A stretch of DNA of 32,000 nt, taken from assembly GCF_000406145.1 (NCBI RefSeq), contig NZ_CM001976.1, forward strand, positions 3,883,177 to 3,915,176, in the 5' to 3' direction. Position numbers and translations under genes: made by a program. Under the pieces are notes generated by a model, which worked only from the letters and a program-made list of their open reading frames with translations, did not search any database and was not told the origin of the DNA. The stretch comes from Dickeya dadantii NCPPB 898 (GTDB lineage Bacteria > Pseudomonadota > Gammaproteobacteria > Enterobacterales > Enterobacteriaceae). Below are positions 3,479 through 31,615 of this stretch, piece after piece; the stretch's first letter is position 1; the number at the start of each line of letters is the position of its first letter.

Positions 3479-4186
3479 ATGATGAAAATACAACCGACCG
3501 CCATCGCCCAGATTGCCGATGCGCTGATCGAACGGATTCACCAGGGCGAGTTCGCCAGCGGGCGGCTGCCGTCCGAGCGGGCGCTCAGCGAGCAATTTTC
3601 CACCACCCGCATTACCCTGCGCGAAGCGCTCACCTTGCTGGAATCGCAGGGCATCATTTATCGGGAACTACGGCGCGGTTGGTTCATCTCACCGCCGCGG
3701 CTTAGCTATAATCCGCTGCACAGAAGTCACTTTCATGAAATGGCGGAAAAACAGGGGCGTAAAGCCGCCACCGAGGTGCTGGACGCCGGCGTCGTCGCGG
3801 CGAATGCGGCGATCGCCCGTCATCTGGAACTGGAGGAAGGCGCGGATATCTACCGTATCCGCCGTTTGCGGCGCCTCGACGGGCGCGCGGTGCTGTACGT
3901 GGAACACTATTTGAACCCGGCCTGGTTTCCGGATTTACTGCGCAGCGACCTGACGCGTTCGCTCACCCAGCTTTACCAGTCGCAATACGACATTCGTTAC
4001 GGCCGGGTGCGTTTTACCATGCTGCCGACGCCGCTGCCGCCGGTCGCCGCCCCGGCGCTAAAGCTCGCGCCCGGCAGTCCGGCGCTGTTCATCACCCGCA
4101 TTAACCGCGATCAGCACGACCGCATCATCGACTGCGACTGCGAGTACTGGCGCTACGACGCGCTGTATATTGATGTGGAAGCGTGA
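3479..4186 (+). CDS. GntR/HutC-family transcriptional regulator with UTRA effector domain (PhnR-like)
   Basis: Start at ATG 3479 (MMKIQPTAIAQIADALIERIHQGEF...). LPSERALSEQFSTTRITLREAL is the GntR winged-helix signature. Divergent from the ABC operon. Confidence 0.75.
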   Translation: MMKIQPTAIAQIADALIERIHQGEFASGRLPSERALSEQFSTTRITLREALTLLESQGIIYRELRRGWFISPPRLSYNPLHRSHFHEMAEKQGRKAATEVLDAGVVAANAAIARHLELEEGADIYRIRRLRRLDGRAVLYVEHYLNPAWFPDLLRSDLTRSLTQLYQSQYDIRYGRVRFTMLPTPLPPVAAPALKLAPGSPALFITRINRDQHDRIIDCDCEYWRYDALYIDVEA

Positions 4187-5519: not shown

Positions 5520-7448
5520 ATGCGCACTTTCCTCTTATTTTTGGGCGTTCTACTGTTTTCATCATCGGTTTTATCGGCAGAACCATCCCATGTAAATTTC
5601 ACAGAACAAAATCAGCAAATTACATCATTAATTGGGCAACTCATTCAGTTACACCGAGAGCAAGCAAAACTGGAAGAGCAGGTCAAATCCAACACCAATG
5701 ATATTCAGGCCCTCGCCGATAAAAATAAAGATGTATTAAAAAATGAGATCGCGACCCTTTCCAGAGAAATTTCATTCACTGAAAAAACAGTGGAAATACG
5801 GATTGCCAATATCGAAAAAAGCAGCGATTACATTAATAAATTATATGGTGTAGGAAGCATTATTATTACATTGATGATCTTTGGATTTGGTTTCATTGGT
5901 TATCAAAGAGCCAAGACTGATGCAAAATCAGCCGCTGAAACCGCGATGAAAGAATGGATTAAGAAGAATGAAAACGCGGTATTATCCACCATTGATGAGC
6001 ACACAAGAGCACAAGAAGCGTTATTACGAGATCATACCGATAGCTTGCTTCAGGAGCTAAGAGATACGGTGCAAAATGCACAAAAAGATGGCGAAAAGCT
6101 GGCAGGTTTCCTGAGAAAAGTTCAGGAAAATAAAGGCGCCACGATTGAAGAAAAACAGTTTATTCCCCAGGAAGCAGATAAAGCCGCAGGCTCAGTTCAT
6201 CAGGAAGACAAAGGGCCTCATGCCCCTTCGGTAAAAAAAGCCAGAGGCTTATTCAATCAAGGCGTCAGTCTTGGGCAGCAGGGTAAATCGGACCAGGCAA
6301 TACAAATTTATAACCAGTTAATCACTGAATTCCAGGACAGCGATGATCCGATATTACAGGAGCTGGTTGCCAAAGCCATGGGCAACAAAGGCTTCAGGCT
6401 TGGGAAAAAAGGCGAACTGAGCGACGCAATCCAGACCTACGATCGGTTGATAACCCGTTTCAAAAACAGTGATAGCCCTGTCATTCTGCAATGGATTGCC
6501 ACCGCGATGCTGAATAAAGCCATCAATATTGGGCAACAAGGCCAATCGGATGAAGAAATCCAGGCCTACGACCAGTTGATCGATAAATTCAAAGACAGCA
6601 CAACGCCGGCAATACAGGAATTGGTAGCCAAAGCCATGGTCAACAAAGGCGTCAGACTTGGGCAACAGGATAAATCGGACGAAGCCATCCACAACTATGA
6701 CCAACTGATAGACATGTTTGAAGGCAGTGATAGCCCCGCCGTACTGAAACAGGTCGCTATGGCTATGCTCAATAAAGGCGTCAGACTGGGGCAACAAGGC
6801 CATGCTGACAGCGCTATCCAGAACTATGATCTGCTGATTGCCCGGTTCAAAGACCGCGATGAACTTGAACTCCAGGAGCAGGTTGCCAAAGCCATGCTGA
6901 ATAAAGGCGTCAAATTTGGGCAACAAAACGCACAGGATGAGGCCATTCAAATTTATGACCAGTTGATTGCCCAGTTCAATGACCACAGTGAACTCGTATT
7001 CCAGGAACTGGTGATCAAGGCTATGCTGAATAAAGGCGTTAGGCTTGGGAAGCAGGGAAAACAAGAAGAAGAGATCAAAATCTACGACCAGCTAATAGCC
7101 CGGCACAAAGACAGCGACGAGCCAGTGCTGCTAAATCAGGTCGCCATGGCCATGGTCAATAAAGGCATCAGCCTGCGGCAGCATGGTCAGCCAGAAGAGG
7201 CCATCAAGATCTATGACCAACTGATCGCGACGTTCCAGGACAGTGAGGTGCCGACAATACAGGAACGTGTTGTCAGCGCTATGTTTTATAAAGGATTCGC
7301 GCTTGGAAAGCAGGGCCAGACGGACCAGGCGGTGCAAACCTACGATCGACTGATAACCACATTCCAGAGCAGTGATGATCCCGCAATACAAGCCATTGTC
7401 GCCAAAGCGAGGAAAGAGCATAAAACGCTGACAACATCTAAAGAATAG
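5520..7448 (+). CDS. Membrane-anchored coiled-coil protein with nine tandem 43-aa TPR-like repeats; function unknown
   Basis: N-terminal signal-like segment MRTFLLFLGVLLFSSSVLSA, coiled-coil-like stretch, TM segment GVGSIIITLMIFGFGFIGY (about aa 108-128), then nine units of the form NKGxxLGQQGKxDEAIQxYDQLIxxFxDSDxPxxQExVAKAM. AGGGA RBS. Markedly lower GC than the flanks. Confidence 0.7.
   Translation: MRTFLLFLGVLLFSSSVLSAEPSHVNFTEQNQQITSLIGQLIQLHREQAKLEEQVKSNTNDIQALADKNKDVLKNEIATLSREISFTEKTVEIRIANIEKSSDYINKLYGVGSIIITLMIFGFGFIGYQRAKTDAKSAAETAMKEWIKKNENAVLSTIDEHTRAQEALLRDHTDSLLQELRDTVQNAQKDGEKLAGFLRKVQENKGATIEEKQFIPQEADKAAGSVHQEDKGPHAPSVKKARGLFNQGVSLGQQGKSDQAIQIYNQLITEFQDSDDPILQELVAKAMGNKGFRLGKKGELSDAIQTYDRLITRFKNSDSPVILQWIATAMLNKAINIGQQGQSDEEIQAYDQLIDKFKDSTTPAIQELVAKAMVNKGVRLGQQDKSDEAIHNYDQLIDMFEGSDSPAVLKQVAMAMLNKGVRLGQQGHADSAIQNYDLLIARFKDRDELELQEQVAKAMLNKGVKFGQQNAQDEAIQIYDQLIAQFNDHSELVFQELVIKAMLNKGVRLGKQGKQEEEIKIYDQLIARHKDSDEPVLLNQVAMAMVNKGISLRQHGQPEEAIKIYDQLIATFQDSEVPTIQERVVSAMFYKGFALGKQGQTDQAVQTYDRLITTFQSSDDPAIQAIVAKARKEHKTLTTSKE
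6240..7409 (+). repeat. Nine tandem 129-bp (43-codon) coding repeats inside the TPR-like gene
   Basis: The NKG motif recurs at aa 246, 289, 332, 375, 418, 461, 504, 547 and 590, exactly 43 aa apart. Confidence 0.85.
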
Positions 7449-16425: not shown

Positions 16426-16580
16426 GCCGTTTCTACGGCTGCCGGTTTTGACCCTTTTTTTTCGCCTTGTTATAACTCATTGATTTTTAATGACGACAAT
16501 GATCGACGTTAAAAAAGGGTTTTCCAGGAAAAATCCCGACTTCCCTTTCAAAATCAGGTAATAGGCGATAAATTGCTACG
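16426..16580 (+). promoter_or_regulatory. CRISPR1 leader
   Basis: AT-rich sequence directly 5' of the first repeat. It shares with the other two leaders an AAAAAAGGGT motif ending about 60 nt before repeat 1 (16511-16520), an IHF-like WATCAANNNNTTR match (16473-16485, minus strand) and a (C/T)TACG junction. Confidence 0.6.
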
Positions 16581-22516: not shown

Positions 22517-22646
22517 CGTAGCGAACATTCGCTTATCACCTGATTAATAAAGAAAAATCGTCATTTTGACGAAAAAAACCCTTTTTTCTGGCGGCCAGAT
22601 TGCGGTATTAAAAATCAATACGTTAACGCTGGCCGCAAAAAAAGGG
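22517..22646 (-). promoter_or_regulatory. CRISPR2 leader
   Basis: Between the cas6f stop and the first repeat. AAAAAAGGGT motif (plus-strand 22578-22587) about 61 nt from repeat 1. IHF-like AATCAATACGTTA at 22613-22625. GCTACG junction. Confidence 0.6.
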
Positions 22647-23201
22647 TTAAAACCAGGGGATGGTGGCGACCGCGCTTAACCCGTAGCTGGAGAACGCCCC
22701 GGCGACCGGTTTATCCTGCAACGGACAGTGTTCGACGAACAGCAGAAACGTTTGTCCGTTGGAAAGGCTTCGCAGCGGCAGATACGGCAGCGAGGTGCGT
22801 TTTTCCACCGTATAGGGAATGCGCGCGTCTGCCTCATCTACGGTCATCCGGCCTTTGTTCACCGCGCGACGGCGCAGCCGCTCGGCGCTGCTTTTCACCT
22901 GCACCCGACGTACCGTGCGGTACTTCACGCCCGCCGGCACCGGCAGCGCTTCGGTGATGACGGTATAATCGCGCAGTCCTTTCAGCCAGCCGGTCTGCTC
23001 CAGCGCCGCCAGCTCCTGCACGCTGCCGTGCAGCCGCAGGCGCTCCCCCAGCGTTTTGCCCGCATCAGGAAAGCTCACCCCGATGGCGCCCGTCGCCCGT
23101 TGCCCCAGCGCCCGGTGCAGCTTGGCGAACAGCGCGCTCAGCAACTGCACCCCGCTGAATTCCGGGTCGGGCAGCACCCGAATCTCGATATAGTGGTCCA
23201 T
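22647..23201 (-). CDS. cas6f: Cas6f (Csy4) CRISPR repeat endoribonuclease
   Basis: [15 protein letters not shown]...GVSFPD...[15 protein letters not shown]...SYGLS...IPWF is colinear with P. aeruginosa Csy4. Confidence 0.95.
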
Positions 23202-24231: not shown

Positions 24232-25170
24232 TCAGTAATTGAATTCGAGTTCGTCGTAGTCATCCGCCGCGCGGTTCAGATCGTCTGCGGTTTGCAGGCA
24301 GCGGTAGGTGCCGTGTTGATAGTGGTAACGCCAGAGGATGCGGTTGATATCATTAATCCGGTGCGCGCCGCGCCACTCGCCGACGCCGTAAATGGCCTCG
24401 GCGAAACAGAACGGGGTGGACAAGTCGCGGGTTTTCTCCACCTCGCCGGGGGTATACAACGGCGAAATGGCGCGGTAGCCGGTCATCAGCGGCACCAGAT
24501 AGCCGCCTTCAGGTTTGGGCAACGCCTGCCAGTTCACCTCATCGTCAGGTGAGCGCACCGCCTGATGTTTAAGGGCGGCGAAATCCAGCCAGGCATCCAG
24601 CATCTCCGCCTGCGGATTGGCCTGCTGCAAGTCCTGAAAATGCGACTGCAACAGCGGGGTGCGATCCAGCAGCACAAACCCCGGCAGCAAACGGCGCATC
24701 AGGCCGCGCGTGCTGCCGTCGTCGGCGGGCATGTCATCGATGCTTACCCGTTCGATGTCTACAATCAGCCCGCCCGCCAGCCGCTGGCGCAGCGACAGCT
24801 GTCGCAACTGCTGTTTCAGCGTGTCGAGGCCGTCTTCACCGGGCAACATACCGTGACACTCGATAAGCAGCGACACGGTGAGATGCATCCGCCCTTCCTC
24901 GTTAAAGGCGGCGGTTTTTTCCTCTTTGGTCAGCGGGTTGCGCGTGAGGGCGAAGCTGCGGTTCCAGCCGCTGCCGTAAGCATGCAACTGGTGCTGATGG
25001 CACACCACGCCGCAGCCTTCCAGCGTCAGGCCATGCGATGCCTGCAACTGACGCGACAGCGCGTGAGTAAAGCCGAGAAAATGGCTGATGGCCGGAAAGC
25101 CGTAGGTGTGCCCGGCGATGGCGTTGGCGTTTTCCACCTGAATACGCCGCAGAATAATCAGGCTGCTCAT
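24232..25170 (-). CDS. csy2: Cas5f (Csy2) Cascade subunit
   Basis: Position between csy1 and csy3. ATGA overlap with the csy1 stop. N-terminal [13 protein letters not shown]... is Csy2-like. Confidence 0.85.
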
Positions 25171-26504
25171 GCCAATTCTCCCTTCAATGCACGCTCGGTT
25201 TCACGCAGGCGCTGTTTGAACAGCGCGGCGGTTGACCATTCGCGGCGTTCCACCTCGCCGAAAATCAGTTTCTCATGCTGTAACCGCGCATTCAGCCAGC
25301 GGCCAAATTCATGGGCTACCTGCTCCTTCCAGTCACCGGCGTCGCGTTCACGCAGAAAATCCTTGTCCTGCAAGCCGCGCCACGGATCAAGCCACAATTG
25401 CAGATGGCGTTTCAGACGGGAATCCACGCTCCAGCCCGCCGGACGCAGGTTTTGTACCGTAGCGACATAGCCAAATAAGGTGTCGATTAACTGGTCGAGG
25501 TAACGCCGGCGCTGGTTACGAATCTCGCGGTTGTTTTCCACCTCTTTTACGCTGAGCAGGAATTGCCGCATCTCCCGACGGTCGGCATAGGTCAGTGCGT
25601 CCACCTCGCCCCGTTCACGAAAGATGGTGTCATGCTCGACGGGCGGTTTGATGTGGCTGCGCCACTGCGGCGGCGCACTACTCAGCAGATAAGAACGGCC
25701 GCTGCGGGCGCTGTTCAGCGCAGAGATATTTTGCGGCTTGGTGCCGCCCATGTTTTGCACCGCGACACCGGGGTAGCTGACCAGCACCTCACCGTGCCAG
25801 CGTTTTTCCCGCCGGGCCTCACGGATGGCTTTGGCCTGCTCGCCGAAGCGCACCGCCGTCAGGCGTTGGTCCAGCGCCTGCGACAGTGAGGACGAATAAA
25901 GCGGGCTGAGTAAGTGGTATTCCCCGTCCCCCAGCGGAAAGTAGATCTGCTTGGCGAGTTTATGGGAACTGGGCTGTTTATCGGTCAGCACCAGCCCGAA
26001 CCCGGCCAGCCACTGGGTGAGCTGCTGCGGGCTTTCCGCCAACGCTTCCAGCGCGCGGTGGTCGCCCCGTTGCAGCGCCGCCAGCAGTGAATCGCCGTGA
26101 TGTTCGGTTTGCAGCAGTTTGGCCACGTCCAACGCCGCCGCGTTGCCGACGGCATCAATCGCCGGTTGCGCCAGCGTCGCGGTAGACAACACCGCACTGT
26201 CAGCAGCGGGTTTAGTGCTGAACACGCTGCTGCCTTTAGCGTCGCTGTGGGTGAATTTCAGCGCGTGGGTCACCAGGCTAATCTGCCCGGCCCGGCTGGC
26301 GGCGTCGGTCAGCCAGTTGCGCACCTCGTAGGCTTGTTCTATCTCACGCCGCGCTTGCGCCAGCGTCAATTCCGCTTCGGCCAGCGCCTCACCGCTTAAC
26401 GCCGCCCGCTGCTTATCGGCGGCTTTATCGAAGGCGTCGAGCTTGGTCTGAAGCCGGTTACTGATATACGAGAGGATGAACGCTTGCAAACCTTCACTAC
26501 TCAT
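25167..26504 (-). CDS. csy1: Cas8f (Csy1) Cascade large subunit
   Basis: First gene after the cas2/3 gap, about 445 aa. [10 protein letters not shown]...KLDAFDK N-terminus typical of Csy1. AAGGAA RBS. Confidence 0.85.
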
Positions 26505-26537
26505 TGTCGATTCCTTGAGCGTGTTATCAGTTACTGA

Positions 26538-26717
26538 TTAATTACGGTTAATGTTAAGGAAGAAAATTGTGAACCACTGCGTTGTTACTGACGAATCGGG
26601 TGGATTGTTAACAGTCAGAGATACTGGCTTCATCAGCAATCCAGCAGCCATACAAAGTACAGCGATACAGAATAACCTTAAGTTAGCTGGCCTCGTTTCA
26701 TTAGAATCTCTCATCAT
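26538..26717 (-). CDS. Hypothetical 59-aa small hydrophobic peptide on the cas strand, upstream of csy1; coding status uncertain
   Basis: ATGATG at 26717/26714. MMRDSNETRPANLRLFCIAVLCMAAGLLMKPVSL... has one predicted TM-like segment. No convincing SD. It almost fully overlaps an ORF on the other strand. Confidence 0.25.
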   Translation of the reverse strand: MMRDSNETRPANLRLFCIAVLCMAAGLLMKPVSLTVNNPPDSSVTTQWFTIFFLNINRN

Positions 26718-26748
26718 TATCCGAACGAAGGCCATCATAGAACATTGA
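26569..26748 (+). CDS. Hypothetical 59-aa small soluble protein (65 aa from ATG 26551) on the strand of the mini-CRISPR; coding status uncertain
   Basis: GTG 26569 is preceded by AGGAAG with a 6-nt spacer, a good SD geometry. No recognisable domain. A 60-plus-codon ORF in about 40% GC DNA is unlikely by chance, but only one of the two antisense ORFs is likely real. Confidence 0.3.
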   Translation: MNHCVVTDESGGLLTVRDTGFISNPAAIQSTAIQNNLKLAGLVSLESLIIIRTKAIIEH

Positions 26749-26765
26749 ACACTCGTTGATCAACA

Positions 26766-26808
26766 CCTATATATATCACCTATATTTATCACCTTTTGCC
26801 TTTAATCC
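26766..26808 (+). promoter_or_regulatory. Two tandem CC-PAM-flanked partial protospacers for the mini-CRISPR pseudo-spacer, in TATA-rich promoter-like DNA
   Basis: Site A: CC 26766-67 plus 26768-26795. Site B: CC 26779-80 plus 26781-26808. Both begin TATATnTATCAnC, matching pseudo-spacer positions 1-5, 7-11 and 13. Site B also matches 16 and 18-23. Confidence 0.6.
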
Positions 26809-26826
26809 AATAACCCGATACAATTT

Positions 26827-26910
26827 TTCGTACTGCCGACTGGCAGCTTAGAAATATATGTATCAGCCATAGCCTTTCTGTTGTTAACTGCCGCATAGGC
26901 AGCGACGCAC
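26827..26910 (+). CRISPR. Degenerate mini-CRISPR (psiR1 - 28-nt pseudo-spacer - psiR2) in the cas2/3-csy1 gap, antisense to the cas genes; CreA/CreR-like
   Basis: psiR1 ..GTACTGCCGACTGGCAGCTTAGAAA keeps the CTGCC/GGCAG stem and a perfect 8-nt CTTAGAAA handle. Pseudo-spacer 26855-26882 is TATATGTATCAGCCATAGCCTTTCTGTT. psiR2 (26883-26910) GTTAACTGCCGCATAGGCAG-CGACGCAC keeps the 20-nt hairpin part only and abuts the cas2/3 stop. Confidence 0.75.
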
Positions 26911-29900
26911 TCATTTGAGTGCGCCAAACACCCCCAACAGCGGGTGCCAGAACCATTCGTTATCTCTTTTACTCAGGCTGATTTCACCGAAGCGGTCACT
27001 GACCCACGCCAGCTCCCACTGTTTTTCCTCCGCCAGTTGCGAATAGCGTGCGGTACAGTCCATCTCCACCCAACCGCTGACGCCCTCGGCCAGCGTCAAC
27101 GTCACAGGCCGGATCGCCTCGCTGGCTTTCCAGCCGCTTGGGCCGTCGTCCGGCACCATAAAACGCGGCGCATCGCTTTCGTCGTCCAGCCACAGACAGT
27201 AACGTTGCTGTGGCTCCGACTGGCGAAACGGCGTGCGCCGTTGCAGTTCGCCGTTCCAGTGCAGCGGTTTGCGCCACCACAGCACCGCCGTCGCCTGCGA
27301 AGGCGACGTGCCTTTCGGCCCAAACAGTTTCCCTGCCAGCGCCGCATGTTCCAGCGTTACCAGCGTTAACGGTTTTTTGAATACCGGCGGCTGAATACGC
27401 GGCGCGGCGCTGATCGCGCGGTAGTCTTCCGGTTTAAGCAGTTGGTGCAGATCGTGGCTGGTCAACAGCCGATCGTTGGATTCAAAACCGGGACGGCAAA
27501 ACGCCACCGGTTCCCCTTTAAGCGCCCGCACGTTATGGCTCAGCAGATAAAAATTGGGCGACGTCGGCACAAACTCGTCACGCTGACGGTGGCGCAAAAT
27601 GCGCCCGGCCAGTTGGATTAATGAACGCATCGAGCTGGGTTCGGCGATGGCCCAGTCATAGTCATGGTCCCTGCCGACCTCAGCCACCGACGTCGCCAGC
27701 ACCACAAACAGATGATGCCGTTGCGGTTGCTGCTCGATGGCCTCGCGGATTTCCGTCACCTGCCACAGCGCGTCCGGGTGTTTGCGCATCAGCGCCGTAT
27801 CCAGCCGCGCTTCGATATGGGAACGCATCACCAGCGGGTGCTGGCTGTGATAGACGCAGTAGTGCACGCAGCAATCCGGCGGCGACGGCATCGCCATCAG
27901 CGCACGCGCCACCGCCGCCAGCGGGTTGATGTTCGCCATGCGAATCAGCCCCAGCGACACGGTTTTTCCCGATGGGTGAGTCTGGTGATGCTGCTCATGC
28001 AGGCTAAACAGCCGTTGATGCAGCGTCTGCGCCACCGCGCGGCACACCGCGTCGGCATCCGGCGCCGGGCTTACCACCGGCTCAATCTCCGCCCAGCGTA
28101 ACGTCAGTTCCTGCTGTTGCAGCTTGTCGATACGCCCGGCGACAAACGCCTGATGACGTTCGGAAAACGCTTGTGCATCGGCGAATGGCTGACACTGGCT
28201 GTCGAATTCATCAAACCAGCCGCAGCAAACATTCAGCGGCGTATCCGGCTCGCCGTACGCCTGCTGCCAGGCGGCGCGGCCATCCAGGTAAGCGTCGAAC
28301 AAGGCGCGGATCAGCGCCGGCGGCAGCGTGGCGGATGACAGCAGCACCCGCGAGCCGAGCATCCCCGCCCAGTTCACCAGCCGACACAGCGCGGGCAGGT
28401 CTTCCAGCCCGAAATCGTCCGGCTCGTCCAGCACCAGATCAGCGGTCAGCAGCCGCAGCATCGGCGCAATCTGGTGGCCGCCGCGCAGGCTTTCGGTGGC
28501 CGGCATCAGGTGATCAATGGTGGTGACCAGCACCGGCGCGCTCAGCAGTTGATGCAGCGTCGGCGATTTCTCCAGCCAGGTTTTCAGCCGACCGTCATCC
28601 AGCGAGCCCTGGTAGCTGACGTACTGATGTTCGGCAAACAGCGCCTCGGCGGATTCGCTGCCGGTCTGCGCGGCGCGTTCCGCCTGCTGGCGTCGTTCAT
28701 GCAGTTCCTGCACCGCCTGCGAGCCGATCAACACCGCCAGATCGTCCTCATCCAGCGTCAGGCGCTGACGCAGCGCGTCACCGGTTTGCAGCGTCAGGGT
28801 GCGCAGGCCGAGCGCCACGGAGAAGCGGCACCCGCGTGATTCATCCGCCAGCCCGTACATGATACGGGCGTTGGCCAGCGTCTTGCCGCGCCCGGTGGAC
28901 GCCATGTTGACGCCAAAGAAGCCGTGGCGAGCCGTCTGCTCACGAATGGCGCACACCTGATCAAACGCCTTGTCCTGCCAGCGGAAACGCGCATCGGCGC
29001 TGCGTTGACGAAAGCCTTTGTGCCGGGTGATGGCGGGCAGCGTATCGCGCAGGTGCGGCAAGCTGCGCCCCAGCAGCAATGCATTCTGCCCGACGCCGAC
29101 GCAGTGTTCGTCCAGTTGCTGCTTGAGCGTGCCGGTCTGACGGTCGGTATTGGCCCATACCGGATAACGCGGGTCTTGCCAGCCGCTGGTCGCCGGGGAG
29201 GATGAATAGTGGTGGTCCGCCAGCATCAGCACCAGCCGCGCCAGATGCGCCGTCAGGCGTTGATCCAAGTGACCGAAGGTCGGCAGCGACGGCAATTTCA
29301 GCGCACGGGCAGCGAACTTGCGCGCCTTTTCGCACCAGACGCGGCTTTGCAGCGGCGTACCGTGCGGGAACTGCCACACCTGTTCCCACTGCGTGTCGTC
29401 GCCATCAAAATTCAGGTGGTTGACGGCATTCCAGCGCGGTGAAAGCTGCCCGGTAAGCCAGCGTTCGGCGCACGCCAGATCGGGCGAAACGCTGTCGCCA
29501 TCTGGCTTTTCCCACGTCTGAAACAGCGGCAAACGGTGATGCGACACAATCAGCCAGCCCACCACCTGCGCCAGCGGCGGCAAATCGCGAAACGGCGACG
29601 CCCAGGACTCCGGATCATCCTGCTGCAACCGCGCCAGCAGCGCGGTGTCGTCATCCGGGCTGATGCCGCCGAGCGCCGTCAGCCAGCTGGTGTCATCTCG
29701 CTCGCCGACAAACTCCTGAAACAGCCGCAGCGACACCCACTCATGGCGATAAGGCTGACTGCGCGGCCCGTCGCCCTGCAAACCGGCCTGAAATAATCCA
29801 TTGGCCTTGCCGATGTCATGAAACAGGCCGGCAATCGCCGCCAGCAGGCTGAAAGCTTCGGCGCTATGCCACGGGTTTTCATCGTTGCTGCGCAGAATAT

Positions 29901-30186
29901 CGCGTTCGGTACGATTGGTCGGGACGCTGCCCTGCCGGTTGAAACGCCGCAGATTGCCGACAATCCACAGCAGTTCGGTGTGGTTGGCGCTGCGAATCCA
30001 GTGACAGGCGACGGCGGTGTTGCGTCGCGCGGTTTTACGCAGCAACTGGCGTAGCGTTTTCAGCCCTTCTTCGGTGATGGCGGTCTGCCAGGTGCGTTCC
30101 CCCTTGCGTTCGGCGAACTGATCCAGCACCCGGCGGGTTTCTACCAGCGCCCGCTTGTTGCATTCGGAAATCAGCAGGATGTTCAT
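26911..30186 (-). CDS. cas3f: Cas2/3 fusion (Cas2 domain + HD nuclease + SF2 helicase), type I-F signature protein
   Basis: 1091 aa. N-terminal Cas2-like MNILLISECNKRALVETRRVLDQF, HD motif LFHDIGK, helicase motifs (GRGKT, LDEPD). ATGA overlap with the cas1 stop. Confidence 0.95.
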   Translation of the reverse strand: MNILLISECNKRALVETRRVLDQFAERKGERTWQTAITEEGLKTLRQLLRKTARRNTAVACHWIRSANHTELLWIVGNLRRFNRQGSVPTNRTERDILRSNDENPWHSAEAFSLLAAIAGLFHDIGKANGLFQAGLQGDGPRSQPYRHEWVSLRLFQEFVGERDDTSWLTALGGISPDDDTALLARLQQDDPESWASPFRDLPPLAQVVGWLIVSHHRLPLFQTWEKPDGDSVSPDLACAERWLTGQLSPRWNAVNHLNFDGDDTQWEQVWQFPHGTPLQSRVWCEKARKFAARALKLPSLPTFGHLDQRLTAHLARLVLMLADHHYSSSPATSGWQDPRYPVWANTDRQTGTLKQQLDEHCVGVGQNALLLGRSLPHLRDTLPAITRHKGFRQRSADARFRWQDKAFDQVCAIREQTARHGFFGVNMASTGRGKTLANARIMYGLADESRGCRFSVALGLRTLTLQTGDALRQRLTLDEDDLAVLIGSQAVQELHERRQQAERAAQTGSESAEALFAEHQYVSYQGSLDDGRLKTWLEKSPTLHQLLSAPVLVTTIDHLMPATESLRGGHQIAPMLRLLTADLVLDEPDDFGLEDLPALCRLVNWAGMLGSRVLLSSATLPPALIRALFDAYLDGRAAWQQAYGEPDTPLNVCCGWFDEFDSQCQPFADAQAFSERHQAFVAGRIDKLQQQELTLRWAEIEPVVSPAPDADAVCRAVAQTLHQRLFSLHEQHHQTHPSGKTVSLGLIRMANINPLAAVARALMAMPSPPDCCVHYCVYHSQHPLVMRSHIEARLDTALMRKHPDALWQVTEIREAIEQQPQRHHLFVVLATSVAEVGRDHDYDWAIAEPSSMRSLIQLAGRILRHRQRDEFVPTSPNFYLLSHNVRALKGEPVAFCRPGFESNDRLLTSHDLHQLLKPEDYRAISAAPRIQPPVFKKPLTLVTLEHAALAGKLFGPKGTSPSQATAVLWWRKPLHWNGELQRRTPFRQSEPQQRYCLWLDDESDAPRFMVPDDGPSGWKASEAIRPVTLTLAEGVSGWVEMDCTARYSQLAEEKQWELAWVSDRFGEISLSKRDNEWFWHPLLGVFGALK

Positions 30187-31184
30187 CGCGCCACCTGGCT
30201 GCCGGTTTTCGCCACCTGGCTGCGCTGCTGCGCCACCTGTTGCAGGCTGTCGATCATCACATCCAGCGCCTCAGCCTGACGAAACGCCGTCAGGCAGCGC
30301 TGACGGAAATCCTGCTCCTCTTCGCCTTCCATCGCGGCGATAAACGCCTGTGGCAGAATCAGCGCGTCTTTAATCAGGTCGGCCACATCGAACACCAACC
30401 CGCCGCGCCGGGTTTTGCCGTGCAGCACCGCCAGCCCATGCGGCAGCCCCAACACCCACAGCGCCACCGCCGCCACCCCGTAGGCCAGATAGTTGCCGTG
30501 ATCGAGAAAACGGTTCGCCAGATCGGTGCCGCCGCCGCGTTTGGCGCGGGTAAACTCGCCGTAACTCACCGCGTTGGCCGCCAGCCGGTATAGCGCTTTG
30601 GTCATCATCGCTTCCTGCACCAGCACATCGTTGCTGGTGCGGCAACCGCTCAGCCCTTGCTGATAGCGGTTAAGCAACGCTTCCACCTGTTCCGGTTTGA
30701 TGGCGAAACGCGATTCGCGCGCCAGCCGCCCTTCCAGCCAGTGCTGACGAATCTGCCCGATGCGCACCTGCTGAAAGGCAATCGCCGCCGCCAGCCGCTG
30801 TTCTTCGTCAAACCAGAAGCTGACCCAATCCTGCAAATATTCGGTGGGGCGGTATTCGCTCTGCGGCGACAGCCACGACACCGCCACTTCGGCCTCATTA
30901 GCGGCGAACAATGGCGTACCGCCACCGCCGCAAAACCCGACCATCACCCCGGCGCGGGCAAATTCCCGCATCGCCGCCTGCGTTACCGAGGTGCCGGTGC
31001 CGAGCATCACCACGCTGGTATTAGCAATCGGGATATTCCAGTACAGCGACTGATTCCCTTCTTCGGTGACATATTCCACCCGTCCGCCATTCACCAAAAT
31101 ACGGCAATGCTGGAGGTAATAAATATTGGCGCGTTTGGAATGCAGAATGGTTTTTAAATCCGACGGGCTGAATACGTTATCCAT
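30183..31184 (-). CDS. cas1: Cas1 integrase, type I-F
   Basis: ILHSKRANIYYLQHCRILVNGGRVEYV...GTSVTQAAMREFARAGVMVGFCGGGG...LDHGNYLAYG is colinear with I-F Cas1. Confidence 0.95.
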   Translation of the reverse strand: MDNVFSPSDLKTILHSKRANIYYLQHCRILVNGGRVEYVTEEGNQSLYWNIPIANTSVVMLGTGTSVTQAAMREFARAGVMVGFCGGGGTPLFAANEAEVAVSWLSPQSEYRPTEYLQDWVSFWFDEEQRLAAAIAFQQVRIGQIRQHWLEGRLARESRFAIKPEQVEALLNRYQQGLSGCRTSNDVLVQEAMMTKALYRLAANAVSYGEFTRAKRGGGTDLANRFLDHGNYLAYGVAAVALWVLGLPHGLAVLHGKTRRGGLVFDVADLIKDALILPQAFIAAMEGEEEQDFRQRCLTAFRQAEALDVMIDSLQQVAQQRSQVAKTGSQVAR

Positions 31185-31400: not shown

Positions 31401-31615
31401 ATCAACTGGAAAGTAACGAAAATCAGCCTATCACAGCCCAAACAGGAAAGTGAATGACGCCCGAAATACTTTTCCCGCCGCCATACCCTTTTTTTCAACC
31501 GTCTTTTTCGGCATTTAAAAATCAATAAGTTACAGGTAGCCGAGAAAAAAGGGTCTAACGGTGAAAATCGCCAATTGCGGGTCAGAATACAAAGGGTTAG
31601 AGTCAATTCGTTACG
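31401..31615 (+). promoter_or_regulatory. CRISPR3 leader
   Basis: AAAAAAGGGT at 31545-31554, about 61 nt before repeat 1. IHF-like AATCAATAAGTTA at 31520-31532, in the opposite relative orientation to the other two leaders. GTTACG junction. Confidence 0.6.

Follow-up and report, generated by a model that had tools for sequence, protein, structure and literature searches.

Mini-CRISPR arrays situated between cas3 and csy1 of type I-F systems have been published previously; they lie antisense to cas3, and their targets carry the PAM CC and mismatch the guide at positions 6 and 12 (Shmakov et al., 10.1101/2023.03.03.530964). For the mini-array of Pseudomonas aeruginosa strain YL84, repression was independent of Cas3 (10.1101/2023.03.03.530964). 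This element, first reported as an I-F1 regulatory mini-array in YL84 (10.1101/2023.03.03.530964), is now described as P. aeruginosa CreTA1/CreTA2 (Wang et al., bioRxiv 10.64898/2026.06.02.729485), and further published I-F modules include CreTA of Acinetobacter (PMC10097628) and CrePA (10.1101/2024.01.05.574328). The window analyzed here, a stretch of 32,000 nucleotides of Dickeya dadantii NCPPB 898 DNA taken at its full length, carries a comparable element between cas2/3 and csy1, and from comparison of sequences we consider this gap likely to be a CRISPR-repressed cargo module of the CreA type. An earlier interpretation made from the letters of the window (the sequence-only reading) had proposed a CreA/CreR-type guide at this place and knew of no such module in this lineage. 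The kind of module is not novel, I-F cas3-csy1 mini-arrays being already published in P. aeruginosa and Acinetobacter; in the literature searched, what appears to be undescribed is its cargo and its occurrence in Pectobacteriaceae and other Enterobacterales.

The cas2/3-csy1 gap (26505-26910) measures 406 bp and has a GC content of 40.6% (0.406), compared with 0.60-0.64 in the six cas genes, all of which are intact by Pfam (Cas1, Cas2/3, Csy1, Csy2, Csy3 and Cas6f/Csy4). The AT-rich gap of about 41% GC in the sequence-only reading agrees with these values, and each of its other sequence statements on the gap was checked and holds. The AT-rich gap contains low-complexity sequence of TATA type. 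The features of the gap and its flanking genes are as follows:

25167-26504, minus strand: csy1 (cas8f), beginning 33 nt past the stop of the small ORF
26538-26696, minus strand: small ORF of 52 codons plus stop, its product being basic at the N-terminus and having a single hydrophobic helix and a conserved motif of the QWFSIFSININRN type at the C-terminus
26734-26763, minus strand: predicted promoter toward the small ORF and csy1, TTGATC-18-TATGAT, from a consensus scan
26766-26795, plus strand: target site A, the putative ancestral site, with PAM CC at 26766-26767 and protospacer at 26768-26795, matching guide positions 1-5, 7-11, 13 and 15-17
26779-26808, plus strand: target site B, with PAM CC at 26779-26780 and protospacer at 26781-26808, matching 18 of the first 24 positions
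26796-26824, plus strand: predicted mini-array promoter TTGCCT-17-TACAAT, from a consensus scan only, its -35 within site B and directly after site A
26827-26854, plus strand: psiR1, a degenerate I-F repeat TTCGTACTGCCGACTGGCAGCTTAGAAA with a stem CTGCC/GGCAG (5 bp), a 4-nt loop and an intact 8-nt 5' handle CTTAGAAA
26847-26902, plus strand: predicted mature CreA-like RNA of 56 nt, placed by the Cas6f cleavage rule
26855-26882, plus strand: psiS, the pseudo-spacer (guide) TATATGTATCAGCCATAGCCTTTCTGTT, 28 nt, with its seed at positions 1-5, 7-11 and 13
26883-26910, plus strand: psiR2 GTTAACTGCCGCATAGGCAGCGACGCAC with a canonical stem-loop CTGCCGCATAGGCAG and CGACGCAC in place of the 3' handle, adjoining the cas2/3 stop codon
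26906-26923, no strand assigned: hairpin GCACTCA-TTTG-AGTGCGC, in which the psiR2 tail pairs with the last cas2/3 codons across the stop codon
26911-30186, minus strand: cas2/3, convergent with the mini-array

The order psiR1, 28-nt pseudo-spacer, psiR2 on the strand opposite the cas genes, which the sequence-only reading had described, was recovered at 26827-26910 (+). In a canonical CRISPR array, the 28-nt repeats are nearly identical, spacers are 32 nt long and the leader is AT-rich; this element instead has degenerate repeats, a single unit and a 28-nt spacer (13-34 nt in homologues), whereas the genuine spacers of the three arrays in the window are 32 nt long. Its organization is that of a CreA-type element, with two degenerate repeats flanking one spacer-like sequence and psiR1 retaining the Cas6 hairpin and the 5' handle. 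Rfam CRISPR-DR4 matched both pseudo-repeats on the plus strand with scores below the gathering threshold, and the hairpins of the mini-array are present in the predicted centroid fold. The predicted 56-nt RNA would comprise the 8-nt handle, the 28-nt guide and 20 nt of psiR2 up to the hairpin base.

Alignment of 18 homologous loci showed covariation in the psiR1 stem, which is 100% paired (90 of 90 cells) with double changes at four of its five pairs. The six stem variants are all Watson-Crick, and double-change cells number 14 where 3.3 are expected. The alignment thus indicates that a Cas6f substrate is maintained by compensatory changes in the psiR1 hairpin. The psiR1 handle CTTAGAA(A/G) is conserved among the homologous loci, and the psiR2 hairpin with its CGGCGCAC tail shows almost no variation across 15 enterobacterial loci; in the window, a G-to-A change gives CGACGCAC instead of this conserved tail. 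The psiR1 loop in the window has 4 nt rather than 5, which is probably tolerated since the Dickeya zeae locus L058 has the same loop. The guide seed is also identical in D. zeae L058, and the PAM-distal part of the guide differs there by a 6-nt indel (34 nt in L058).

Both targets named in the sequence-only reading are present with their CC PAMs, site A at 26768-26795 matching positions 1-5, 7-11, 13 and 15-17, and site B at 26781-26808 matching 18 of 24 with mismatches to the guide at positions 6, 12, 14, 15, 17 and 24. The two sites share matches at spacer positions 1-5, 7-11 and 13, and they arose from a 13-bp tandem duplication (26764-26776 and 26777-26789). Elsewhere in the 32-kb window, with both strands counted, no CC-flanked site pairs with the guide at more than 5 contiguous positions, compared with 11 at sites A and B. 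The comparison of loci indicates that, of the two targets, site A is the ancestral one, because its distance to psiR1 (59 nt) is close to the approximately 60 nt of most homologous loci and its PAM adjoins the predicted -35 element, and because the duplication that gave site B is shared only with D. zeae L058.

The search of other I-F cas2/3-csy1 gaps proposed with the sequence-only reading was carried out, and it returned 19 gaps with a mini-array and its own target, from Dickeya, Pectobacterium (including a P. atrosepticum-type locus), Brenneria, Erwinia, Serratia, Photorhabdus and distant taxa. The spacers of the 19 loci are unrelated to one another, and each matches a CC-flanked site on the same strand of its own gap at 9-11 of the 11 seed positions. 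In cross-locus controls with foreign spacers (n = 318) the maximum was 8 of 11 seed positions and the mean 5.9, and only 3 of 3800 shuffled seeds reached 10. Each of positions 1-5 and 7-11 is matched in 16 or more of the 19 loci, whereas positions 6 and 12 match in six and three of them, respectively, no better than chance. Freedom to mismatch at positions 6 and 12 is the signature of the bases flipped out in type I Cascade. A guide complementary in its seed to a nearby target with the I-F PAM CC, as in CreA-type elements, was found in the window and in the 19 loci. The covariation shows, at the level of sequence, that the match between guide and target is functional, and it indicates that the pairing is under selection, because unrelated guides each match their own target, foreign guides reach 8 positions at most and positions 6 and 12 are free. 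Together with the compensatory changes in psiR1, this 19-locus pattern strongly supports, as a prediction, the earlier reading of a Cas6f-processable guide of CreA/CreR type. As in silico evidence for seed-only Cascade binding in vivo, this set of 19 independent guide-target pairs, in which positions 6 and 12 are free, is unusually clean.

The promoters of the gap are consensus matches only (9/12). The minus-strand promoter of the sequence-only reading, TTGATC-18-TATGAT, was returned by the consensus scan at 26763-26734, and its -35 hexamer begins at a distance of 2 nt from the PAM complement of site A. The plus-strand promoter TTGCCT-17-TACAAT was absent from that reading. In six of six Dickeya loci (the window, L001, L041, L043, L044 and L047), a predicted -35 of the form TTGAT(C/A) begins 0-2 nt after the PAM complement and is followed by a TAnnAT -10 element, and loci of the P. 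atrosepticum, Brenneria and Serratia types have a target that overlaps the predicted -35. Site A itself lies upstream of the leftward -35 and not over the -10 or the transcription start, so repression would depend on the Cas8f-side footprint. No terminator-like site was found between the small ORF and csy1 in the window, nor any terminator in the long insertion of the Dickeya locus L044 (an insertion also present in L001). In P. atrosepticum, transcripts that start at the cas1 promoter extend through the csy genes (PMC4499141), and thus the internal promoter would not be the sole source of csy mRNA.

A conserved small ORF (26538-26696) between the target and csy1 had been missed in the sequence-only reading and is added here. 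It was found in 15 of 15 enterobacterial module-bearing loci analyzed and in D. zeae L058, and its pairwise dN/dS of 0.09-0.53 indicates that the family is under purifying selection. Every small protein has a 15-residue segment with a mean Kyte-Doolittle value of 2.25-3.19 preceded by 2-5 Lys/Arg, and the AlphaFold2 model places a helix at residues 11-28 with low confidence (pLDDT 65). The gene sits between cas2/3 and csy1 in nine of nine contexts (L041-L047, L050-L053), which were chosen by small-protein identity or via P0003, and in the contexts examined it is always within a module-bearing gap. Its stop codon precedes csy1 by 31-40 nt in most loci (33 nt in the window) and by 280-390 bp in L001, L044 and L047. 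Sequence searches of Pfam, NCBIfam, PADLOC, PHROGs and PDB gave no credible match to the small protein; Pfam had no match for the window protein or seven homologues, and PHROGs none below E = 0.01 for 11 members of alignment A3. Among 1.84 billion representatives, a profile search gave only 7 matches, comprising the family itself and two repetitive, false-looking matches. By these searches the small membrane protein is an orphan family, and its ORF is most likely the repressed gene. A plus-strand 65-aa ORF at 26551-26748 was rejected as a gene, because it lies opposite the small ORF and L041, L043 and L001 lack an open frame there.

In the window, the small ORF begins with ACG (26696-26694) and not with the ATG of six other Dickeya loci (L058, L001, L041, L043, L044 and L047). 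The Shine-Dalgarno sequence is GAGAGA where D. zeae has GAGGGA, and the protein departs uniquely, at five residues, from what is otherwise invariant among the six other Dickeya proteins, compared with at most three such substitutions in other loci. On account of the start codon, the weakened Shine-Dalgarno sequence and these substitutions, the putative toxin gene of the window looks attenuated, with guide, targets and promoters intact, and since the canonical ATG is missing its product may not be made at all in this strain. The ORF is still open with a pN/pS of 0.34 against L058, which is not neutral, and in-frame ATGs occur upstream of the ACG at 26717 and 26714. The seed, targets, PAMs, promoters, handle and hairpins are identical to those of D. 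zeae L058, the PAM-distal part of the guide excepted. The mini-ORF ATGAAACGAGGCCAGCTAACTTAA was considered as a CreT-like RNA toxin and rejected, since six of six other Dickeya loci carry ATG at the start-codon position, and the upstream out-of-frame ATG in L058, L001, L043 and L047 reads ATG AAA TGA, with a stop after two codons. A T-to-C change specific to the window created the out-of-frame mini-ORF of 7 codons at 26701 as a by-product.

The module occurs in 7 of 27 enterobacterial species loci and is absent from close relatives, namely L040 (Csy1 94% identical) and D. dianthicola. P. aeruginosa CreTA is likewise present or absent among close strains, in approximately 26% of loci (10.64898/2026.06.02.729485). 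Searches for phage-borne mimics of the guide (Cracr-type) gave no exact-pattern match in viral contigs and no blastn match in GenBank phages, and the sole match in plasmids was a Legionella I-F repeat region. A 365-bp cas2-3/csy1 gap in P. atrosepticum was reportedly flagged by the Fineran laboratory in 2015 as possibly holding another promoter, a puzzle that a CRISPR-repressed module would account for.

In the mechanism that we propose, a sigma-70 promoter at 26796-26824 would transcribe the mini-array rightward, and Cas6f would cleave at the bases of the psiR1 and psiR2 hairpins to release a crRNA-like RNA, about 56 nt long, that carries a normal 5' handle and a 3' hairpin. Assembled with Csy1-3 and Cas6f into a Csy complex, this RNA would direct reading of the CC PAM and seed pairing with site A and the duplicated site B, amid two back-to-back promoters. 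Because complementarity is partial and the guide is shorter than 32 nt, binding would not license cleavage by Cas2/3. The bound complex would cover the -35 of the leftward promoter (26763-26734), which is predicted to drive the gene for the approximately 52-aa single-helix membrane protein and, as there is no terminator in between, csy1-csy2-csy3-cas6f. It may also stop read-through from cas1-cas2/3 and, via site B, transcription from the promoter of the mini-array itself. The level of the small protein, and partly that of Csy, would then be an inverse read-out of Csy DNA-binding activity, and loss of Csy or its block by an anti-CRISPR would derepress the small protein. By analogy with CreT or CreP, this protein is most likely a growth-arresting membrane toxin, a suggestion drawn from the architecture of the locus and the membrane-peptide character of the product, with the attenuated allele of the window as an indirect hint. 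To our knowledge, P. atrosepticum strains with Acr plasmids and cas mutants have been handled without reported lethality, which would favour a mild or conditional toxin.

Other explanations of the gap differ in what they make of the guide. That the mini-array is a non-functional relic, its likeness to nearby DNA due to chance or local duplication, might be suggested by the degenerate repeats, the AT-rich TATA-type surroundings and the duplication of sites A and B themselves. This explanation is effectively refuted by the 19 unrelated guides that each match their own CC-flanked target (cross-locus controls reaching 8 of 11 at most), by the clustering of mismatches at positions 6 and 12, by the compensatory changes that keep the hairpin and by a next best PAM-flanked seed match of 5 positions in 64 kb. 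An RNA decoy titrating Cas6f like the solitary repeat units of Racr, or an antisense regulator of cas2/3, would fit the convergence of the mini-array with cas2/3, the pairing of the psiR2 tail with the last cas2/3 codons and the ability of repeat-like RNAs to sequester Cas6f (PMC10651486). Neither would need guide-target complementarity or a PAM, yet both are conserved, and the element is in a host cas operon rather than a mobile element, with no phage matches found; we regard a role other than that of a DNA guide as very improbable.

Two further alternatives accept the guide and differ on the small ORF. In pure CreR-type autoregulation, the guide would repress only the Csy operon, through the internal promoter and a block of cas2/3 read-through, and the small ORF would be a harmless leader or accessory peptide. 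The distance of 31-40 nt to csy1, which in the window holds no terminator-like site, means that any repression would lower csy transcription too; furthermore, the distant loci L034 and L038 have the target directly upstream of csy1 and no small ORF, the window strain lives with a start-less small ORF beside an intact guide and targets, and the YL84 mini-array was read in this way by Shmakov et al. (10.1101/2023.03.03.530964). However, a dispensable leader is not expected to persist in 15 of 15 enterobacterial module loci, at a dN/dS of 0.09-0.53 and always inside the module-bearing gaps examined, three loci (L001, L044 and L047) have 280-390 bp between the ORF and csy1, and in P. aeruginosa a module initially taken for an autoregulator was subsequently found to control a toxin (10.64898/2026.06.02.729485). 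Autoregulation as the whole function is therefore unlikely in our view. We consider it only somewhat unlikely that the family is functional and the copy in the window decaying or defused, with a translationally silenced toxin, a drifting guide and at most residual regulation. The ACG start, the GAGAGA sequence, the five substitutions at otherwise invariant residues and the change from CGGCGCAC to CGACGCAC in the psiR2 tail argue for such decay, but the open ORF with its pN/pS of 0.34, the upstream in-frame ATGs (26717 and 26714) that could still initiate translation, and a seed, two targets, PAMs, promoters, handle and hairpins that are intact and, bar the PAM-distal guide, the same as in D. 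zeae L058 argue against it.

A CRISPR-repressed cargo module thus remains our preferred reading of the gap. Its broadest form, which we advance tentatively and would put somewhat short of an even chance, is that roughly one in four enterobacterial I-F loci, that of the model strain P. atrosepticum SCRI1043 among them, encode a hitherto unrecognized CRISPR-repressed orphan membrane toxin or abortive-infection effector of about 50 aa that is freed on loss of Csy or block by an anti-CRISPR, and that its co-transcription with csy1-cas6f would let one guide combine CreTA addiction with CreR autoregulation. If true, the small membrane protein would add a third class to the Cre toxins, mechanistically distinct from the RNA toxins and the KilAC proteins, and the recent concept of CRISPR effectors re-aimed by degenerate mini-arrays at toxins or at their own genes would extend to plant-pathogenic and other Enterobacterales. 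If toxic, the protein would shape which phages and plasmids with anti-CRISPRs Dickeya and Pectobacterium tolerate, and it could yield a compact kill-switch part.

Among known systems, P. aeruginosa CreTA1/CreTA2 resemble the Dickeya module in their position in the cas2/3-csy1 gap, in a psiR1 with 5' handle and a psiR2 that is a hairpin only, in a guide shorter than 32 nt (20 or 26 nt in P. aeruginosa), in a CC PAM, mismatches at positions 6 and 12 and a target just upstream of the -35 of the repressed promoter (predicted in Dickeya), and in the sharing of promoters with the adjacent cas genes (at least one module in P. aeruginosa, predicted in Dickeya). The gaps of the two have no sequence homology. 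CreT of P. aeruginosa is a small RNA toxin that comprises a Shine-Dalgarno sequence, a mini-ORF of 15 nt in which two codons specify proline, and a hairpin, whereas the Dickeya cargo is a gene for a membrane protein of about 52 aa with selection at the protein level; its 52 codons, dN/dS of 0.09-0.53 and conserved protein motif place it outside the RNA toxins of CreTA. The I-F CreTA of Acinetobacter sp. WCHA45 (PMC10097628) is similar in its cas3-csy1 gap of about 400 bp, absent in most relatives, its psiR1-psiS-psiR2 creA and its PAM-flanked target. [quoted passage not shown]

CrePA of A. baylyi ADP1 (Shu et al., bioRxiv 10.1101/2024.01.05.574328) also has a creA mini-array in the cas3-csy1 gap, a CC-flanked partial target and divergent promoters of creA and cargo (predicted in Dickeya), and its cargo is a protein, not an RNA. 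CreP is a phage-derived cytoplasmic protein of 103 aa with a KilAC domain that blocks cell division; the Dickeya cargo, in contrast, has about 52 aa, one hydrophobic helix, no match in Pfam, NCBIfam, PHROG or PDB, and a presumed toxicity, and its homologues likewise gave no Pfam or PHROG match that would indicate KilAC. In CreR of types I-B, I-E and V-A (bioRxiv 10.1101/2023.03.10.532045), as is predicted here, a degenerate mini-CRISPR guide aims the effector at the promoter of its own genes, and csy1-cas6f of Dickeya lie, as in CreR, downstream of the predicted repressed promoter with no terminator-like site between. CreR modules are without an intervening cargo gene, whereas Dickeya has a conserved ORF between the promoter and csy1.

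A complete type I-F1 CRISPR-Cas locus lies on the minus strand of the window; all its genes were confirmed by Pfam, and its Csy1 is nearest to Dickeya proteins (94% identity to the best match and 91% to D. fangzhongdai). The 406-bp gap between cas2/3 and csy1 is GC-poor, at 40.6% GC vs 60-64% in the cas genes. On the plus strand of this gap the sequence-only reading had placed a mini-array (two degenerate repeats, psiR1 and psiR2, around a pseudo-spacer or guide) that would act as a CreA/CreR-type repressor, and all of the features it listed were present where it had located them.

30183-31184, minus strand, cas1 (Pfam)
26911-30186, minus strand, cas2/3 (Pfam)
26883-26910, plus strand, psiR2, canonical hairpin with degenerate tail
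26855-26882, plus strand, pseudo-spacer (guide), 28 nt
26827-26854, plus strand, psiR1, stem CTGCC/GGCAG, 4-nt loop, perfect CTTAGAAA handle
26796-26824, plus strand, predicted promoter TTGCCT-17-TACAAT (consensus scan)
26763-26734, minus strand, predicted promoter TTGATC-18-TATGAT (consensus scan)
25167-26504, minus strand, csy1 (Pfam)
csy2, csy3 and cas6f, minus strand (Pfam)
16481-16520, 22608-22647 and 31515-31554, leader-like blocks

The three genuine arrays (28-nt repeats, 32-nt spacers) each adjoin one of the leader-like blocks, a conserved stretch of ~40 nt (TTAAAAATCAATA...AAAAAAGGGT), and their repeat loops differ slightly (GTATA, GCGTA, GAGTA). At 6239-7348 a 129-nt (43-codon) unit is repeated nine times in tandem with 60-77% identity; it looks like a TPR/Sel1-type repeat protein with no relation to the mini-array.

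The Rfam CRISPR-DR4 model matched both psiR1 and psiR2 on the plus strand, in both cases below threshold. The two CC-flanked targets, at 26768 (site A) and 26781 (site B), both agree with the guide at positions 1-5, 7-11 and 13, and site B additionally at 16 and 18-23; the next-best PAM-flanked match on either strand of the whole window reached 5 contiguous pairing positions. Both sites derive from a 13-bp tandem duplication (26764-76 / 26777-89, CACCTATATATAT / CACCTATATTTAT). The duplication creating the second target is shared with the D. zeae locus (L058, CP033622), and two tandem targets arose independently in Marinomonas.

A Csy1 profile scan with one genome per species yielded 39 loci, and further Dickeya and Pectobacterium loci were added through protein-identity look-ups. 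Most species have 14-31 nt between cas2/3 and csy1, and 7 of the 27 enterobacterial species loci have a gap of ~380-750 bp, which in each case opens with an antisense repeat-like hairpin directly following the cas2/3 stop. No long gap was present in the closest relative (L040) or in D. dianthicola, and the D. zeae module was near-identical to that of the window (94% column identity over the gap). A search of other type I-F gaps, suggested by the sequence-only reading, recovered the same architecture, with psiR1, guide and psiR2 delimited in 19 loci. These loci have guides of 13-33 nt (34 nt in the later-added D. zeae locus) that show no sequence relation to one another, and every one of the 19 has a CC-flanked same-strand site in its own gap, usually ~60 nt upstream of psiR1, where 9-11 of the 11 pairing positions within 1-13 are matched. 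Guides compared with the gaps of other loci reached at most 8/11 (mean 5.9, n = 318), and only 3 of 3800 shuffled seeds reached 10. Positions 1-5 and 7-11 were matched in 16-19 of the 19 loci, and positions 6 and 12, which are the flipped-out bases in type I complexes, in 6 and 3, respectively. Six variants of the psiR1 stem were seen (CTGCC, CTACC, CTGTC, CAGCC, CTATC, CTGCT), all perfectly paired, with double changes in 4 of the 5 pairs and a covariation score that no shuffle reached. The covariation of guide with target and within the psiR1 stem excludes both a chance resemblance and a dead relic, and supports the CreA/CreR-type reading; what selection maintains is a guide that Cas6f can process and that seed-pairs with adjacent PAM-flanked DNA.

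The 8-nt tail of psiR2, compared between the window (26903-26925), L001, L003, L018, L022, L023, L039 and other loci, is CGGCGCAC and almost invariant across Enterobacterales (CGACGCAC in the window), unlike the guides and psiR1 stems, which vary. By pairing with the final codons of cas2/3 (GGCGCAC...GTGCGCC) it forms a hairpin spanning the stop codon, which could be a 3' end or stability element of a creA RNA or a structure of the cas mRNA. The mini-array part of the gap (26832-26903) also has 78% identity to an unannotated stretch of Legionella I-F plasmids (matches H1/H2, L. pneumophila Lens plasmid NC_006366, 44003-44079).

The consensus scan of the gap returned exactly two promoter-like sites, which flank the targets back to back, and one of them is the minus-strand site pointing at csy1 that had been noted from sequence. 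The predicted plus-strand promoter would put the transcription start a few bases upstream of psiR1. In the six Dickeya loci examined, the minus-strand -35, TTGAT(C/A), starts 0-2 nt past the PAM complement, with a TAnnAT -10 downstream of it; targets of the P. atrosepticum, Brenneria and Serratia types overlap the -35.

Downstream of the minus-strand promoter, a small ORF (26538-26696, minus strand, in the window), overlooked in the sequence-only reading, was present in 15 of 15 enterobacterial module-bearing loci and in D. zeae L058. Its stop lies 33 nt from csy1 in the window with no terminator-like site between them, and therefore the predicted repressed promoter probably also feeds csy1-cas6f. 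Some Dickeya loci carry a GC-rich, palindrome-rich insertion of ~360 bp at this position (L001, about 3610-3990; L044/L045, about 1660-2050), with a weak sub-threshold Rfam match to TwoAYGGAY RNA (31 bits, the gathering score being 43); a search of it for terminator-like or promoter-like sites found none.

The encoded protein has 49-59 aa, with 2-5 Lys/Arg followed by a 15-residue hydrophobic stretch (Kyte-Doolittle mean 2.25-3.19) and a polar tail. This tail closes with a conserved motif, which reads QWFSIFSININRN in the Dickeya and Pectobacterium proteins and SIFTININ in those of Serratia. Among the Dickeya copies, pairwise dN/dS was 0.09-0.53, a substitution pattern that identifies a protein-coding gene and not an RNA toxin. 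AlphaFold2 predicted a helix at residues 11-28 with moderate confidence and little else. No match was found in Pfam, NCBIfam, PADLOC, PHROGs or PDB, and a profile search of 1.84 billion representatives found only its own family. The gene sits between cas2/3 and csy1 in the 9 contexts examined (L041-L047, L050-L053), chosen via small-protein identity or P0003. In D. fangzhongdai CP193488 (L047, 1297-1949) a tandem duplication of ~255 bp takes in target, promoter and small ORF as one unit; the first ORF copy is altered at its C-terminus and the second is intact. A plus-strand ORF of 65 aa (26551-26748) lies antisense to the small ORF; as its frame is not open in L041, L043 and L001, it is probably a shadow ORF. 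Its D. zeae counterpart (L058 957-1154) was annotated by a gene caller instead of the cas-strand ORF; evidently, annotation pipelines miss or mis-strand the real small gene. The distant I-F locus of Marinomonas pollencensis (L028, gap 3511-4000), with its mini-array and two CC-flanked targets, carries a different 67-aa ORF with a hydrophobic segment near the C-terminus, which may be an independent small membrane cargo.

The window and D. zeae L058 are identical in seed, both targets, both PAMs, both promoters and the 4-nt-loop psiR1. The small ORF in the window starts with ACG (26696-26694, minus strand) vs ATG in six other Dickeya loci, its Shine-Dalgarno is weakened from GAGGGA in D. zeae to GAGAGA, and its product carries five substitutions of its own at positions that are constant in the six other Dickeya copies, each of which has at most three of that kind. 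Together, these changes make the cargo look attenuated in this strain, a single observation that might fit a costly or toxic gene. The T-to-C change in the start codon also turns a 2-codon upstream mini-ORF (ATG AAA TGA) into a 7-codon one (ATGAAACGAGGCCAGCTAACTTAA).

Sequence comparison shows a conserved guide, with PAM-flanked seed targets and hairpins suited to Cas6f; the target adjoins a promoter-like element that is itself conserved, as is the membrane-protein gene downstream. In the proposed mechanism, Cas6f would process the mini-array transcript to a ~56-nt RNA that assembles into a Csy complex, and this complex would bind by PAM and seed without Cas2/3 cleavage and occlude the predicted promoter. 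We infer these steps from well-established features of type I-F systems and from experiments done directly on this architecture in P. aeruginosa and Acinetobacter (10.64898/2026.06.02.729485; 10.1101/2024.01.05.574328; 10.1101/2023.03.03.530964; PMC10097628). By inference only, the small protein could be a toxin, in which case the module would combine the role of an autoregulator with that of an addiction or anti-anti-CRISPR device.

Repeat-like sequences beside cas3 occur in 25-29% of I-E, I-D and I-F1 loci, and the I-F1 mini-arrays, which run antisense to cas3, use a CC PAM and show position-6 mismatches (Shmakov et al., 10.1101/2023.03.03.530964). The Li laboratory described CreTA (RNA toxins) and CrePA (KilAC protein) in the cas3-csy1 gap of Acinetobacter and P. 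aeruginosa. Patterson et al. (PMC4499141) noted a 365-bp cas2-3/csy1 gap in P. atrosepticum and speculated on an extra promoter; a locus encoding the SCRI1043 Csy1 sequence (L048) has a 365-bp gap with a homologous mini-array that has a 13-nt guide, its target and a small ORF. The main texts consulted on these modules do not mention Dickeya, Pectobacterium, Serratia or Erwinia, and full-text searches pairing these genera with CreTA or crRNA-like RNAs returned nothing relevant. The type of module is thus already known, and the published type I-F modules share the architecture found here. However, their cargo is an RNA toxin (CreTA) or a KilAC protein (CrePA), whereas that of the window module is an orphan membrane protein; this cargo and the lineage are the new parts, together with the probable co-transcription of the cargo with csy1-cas6f.
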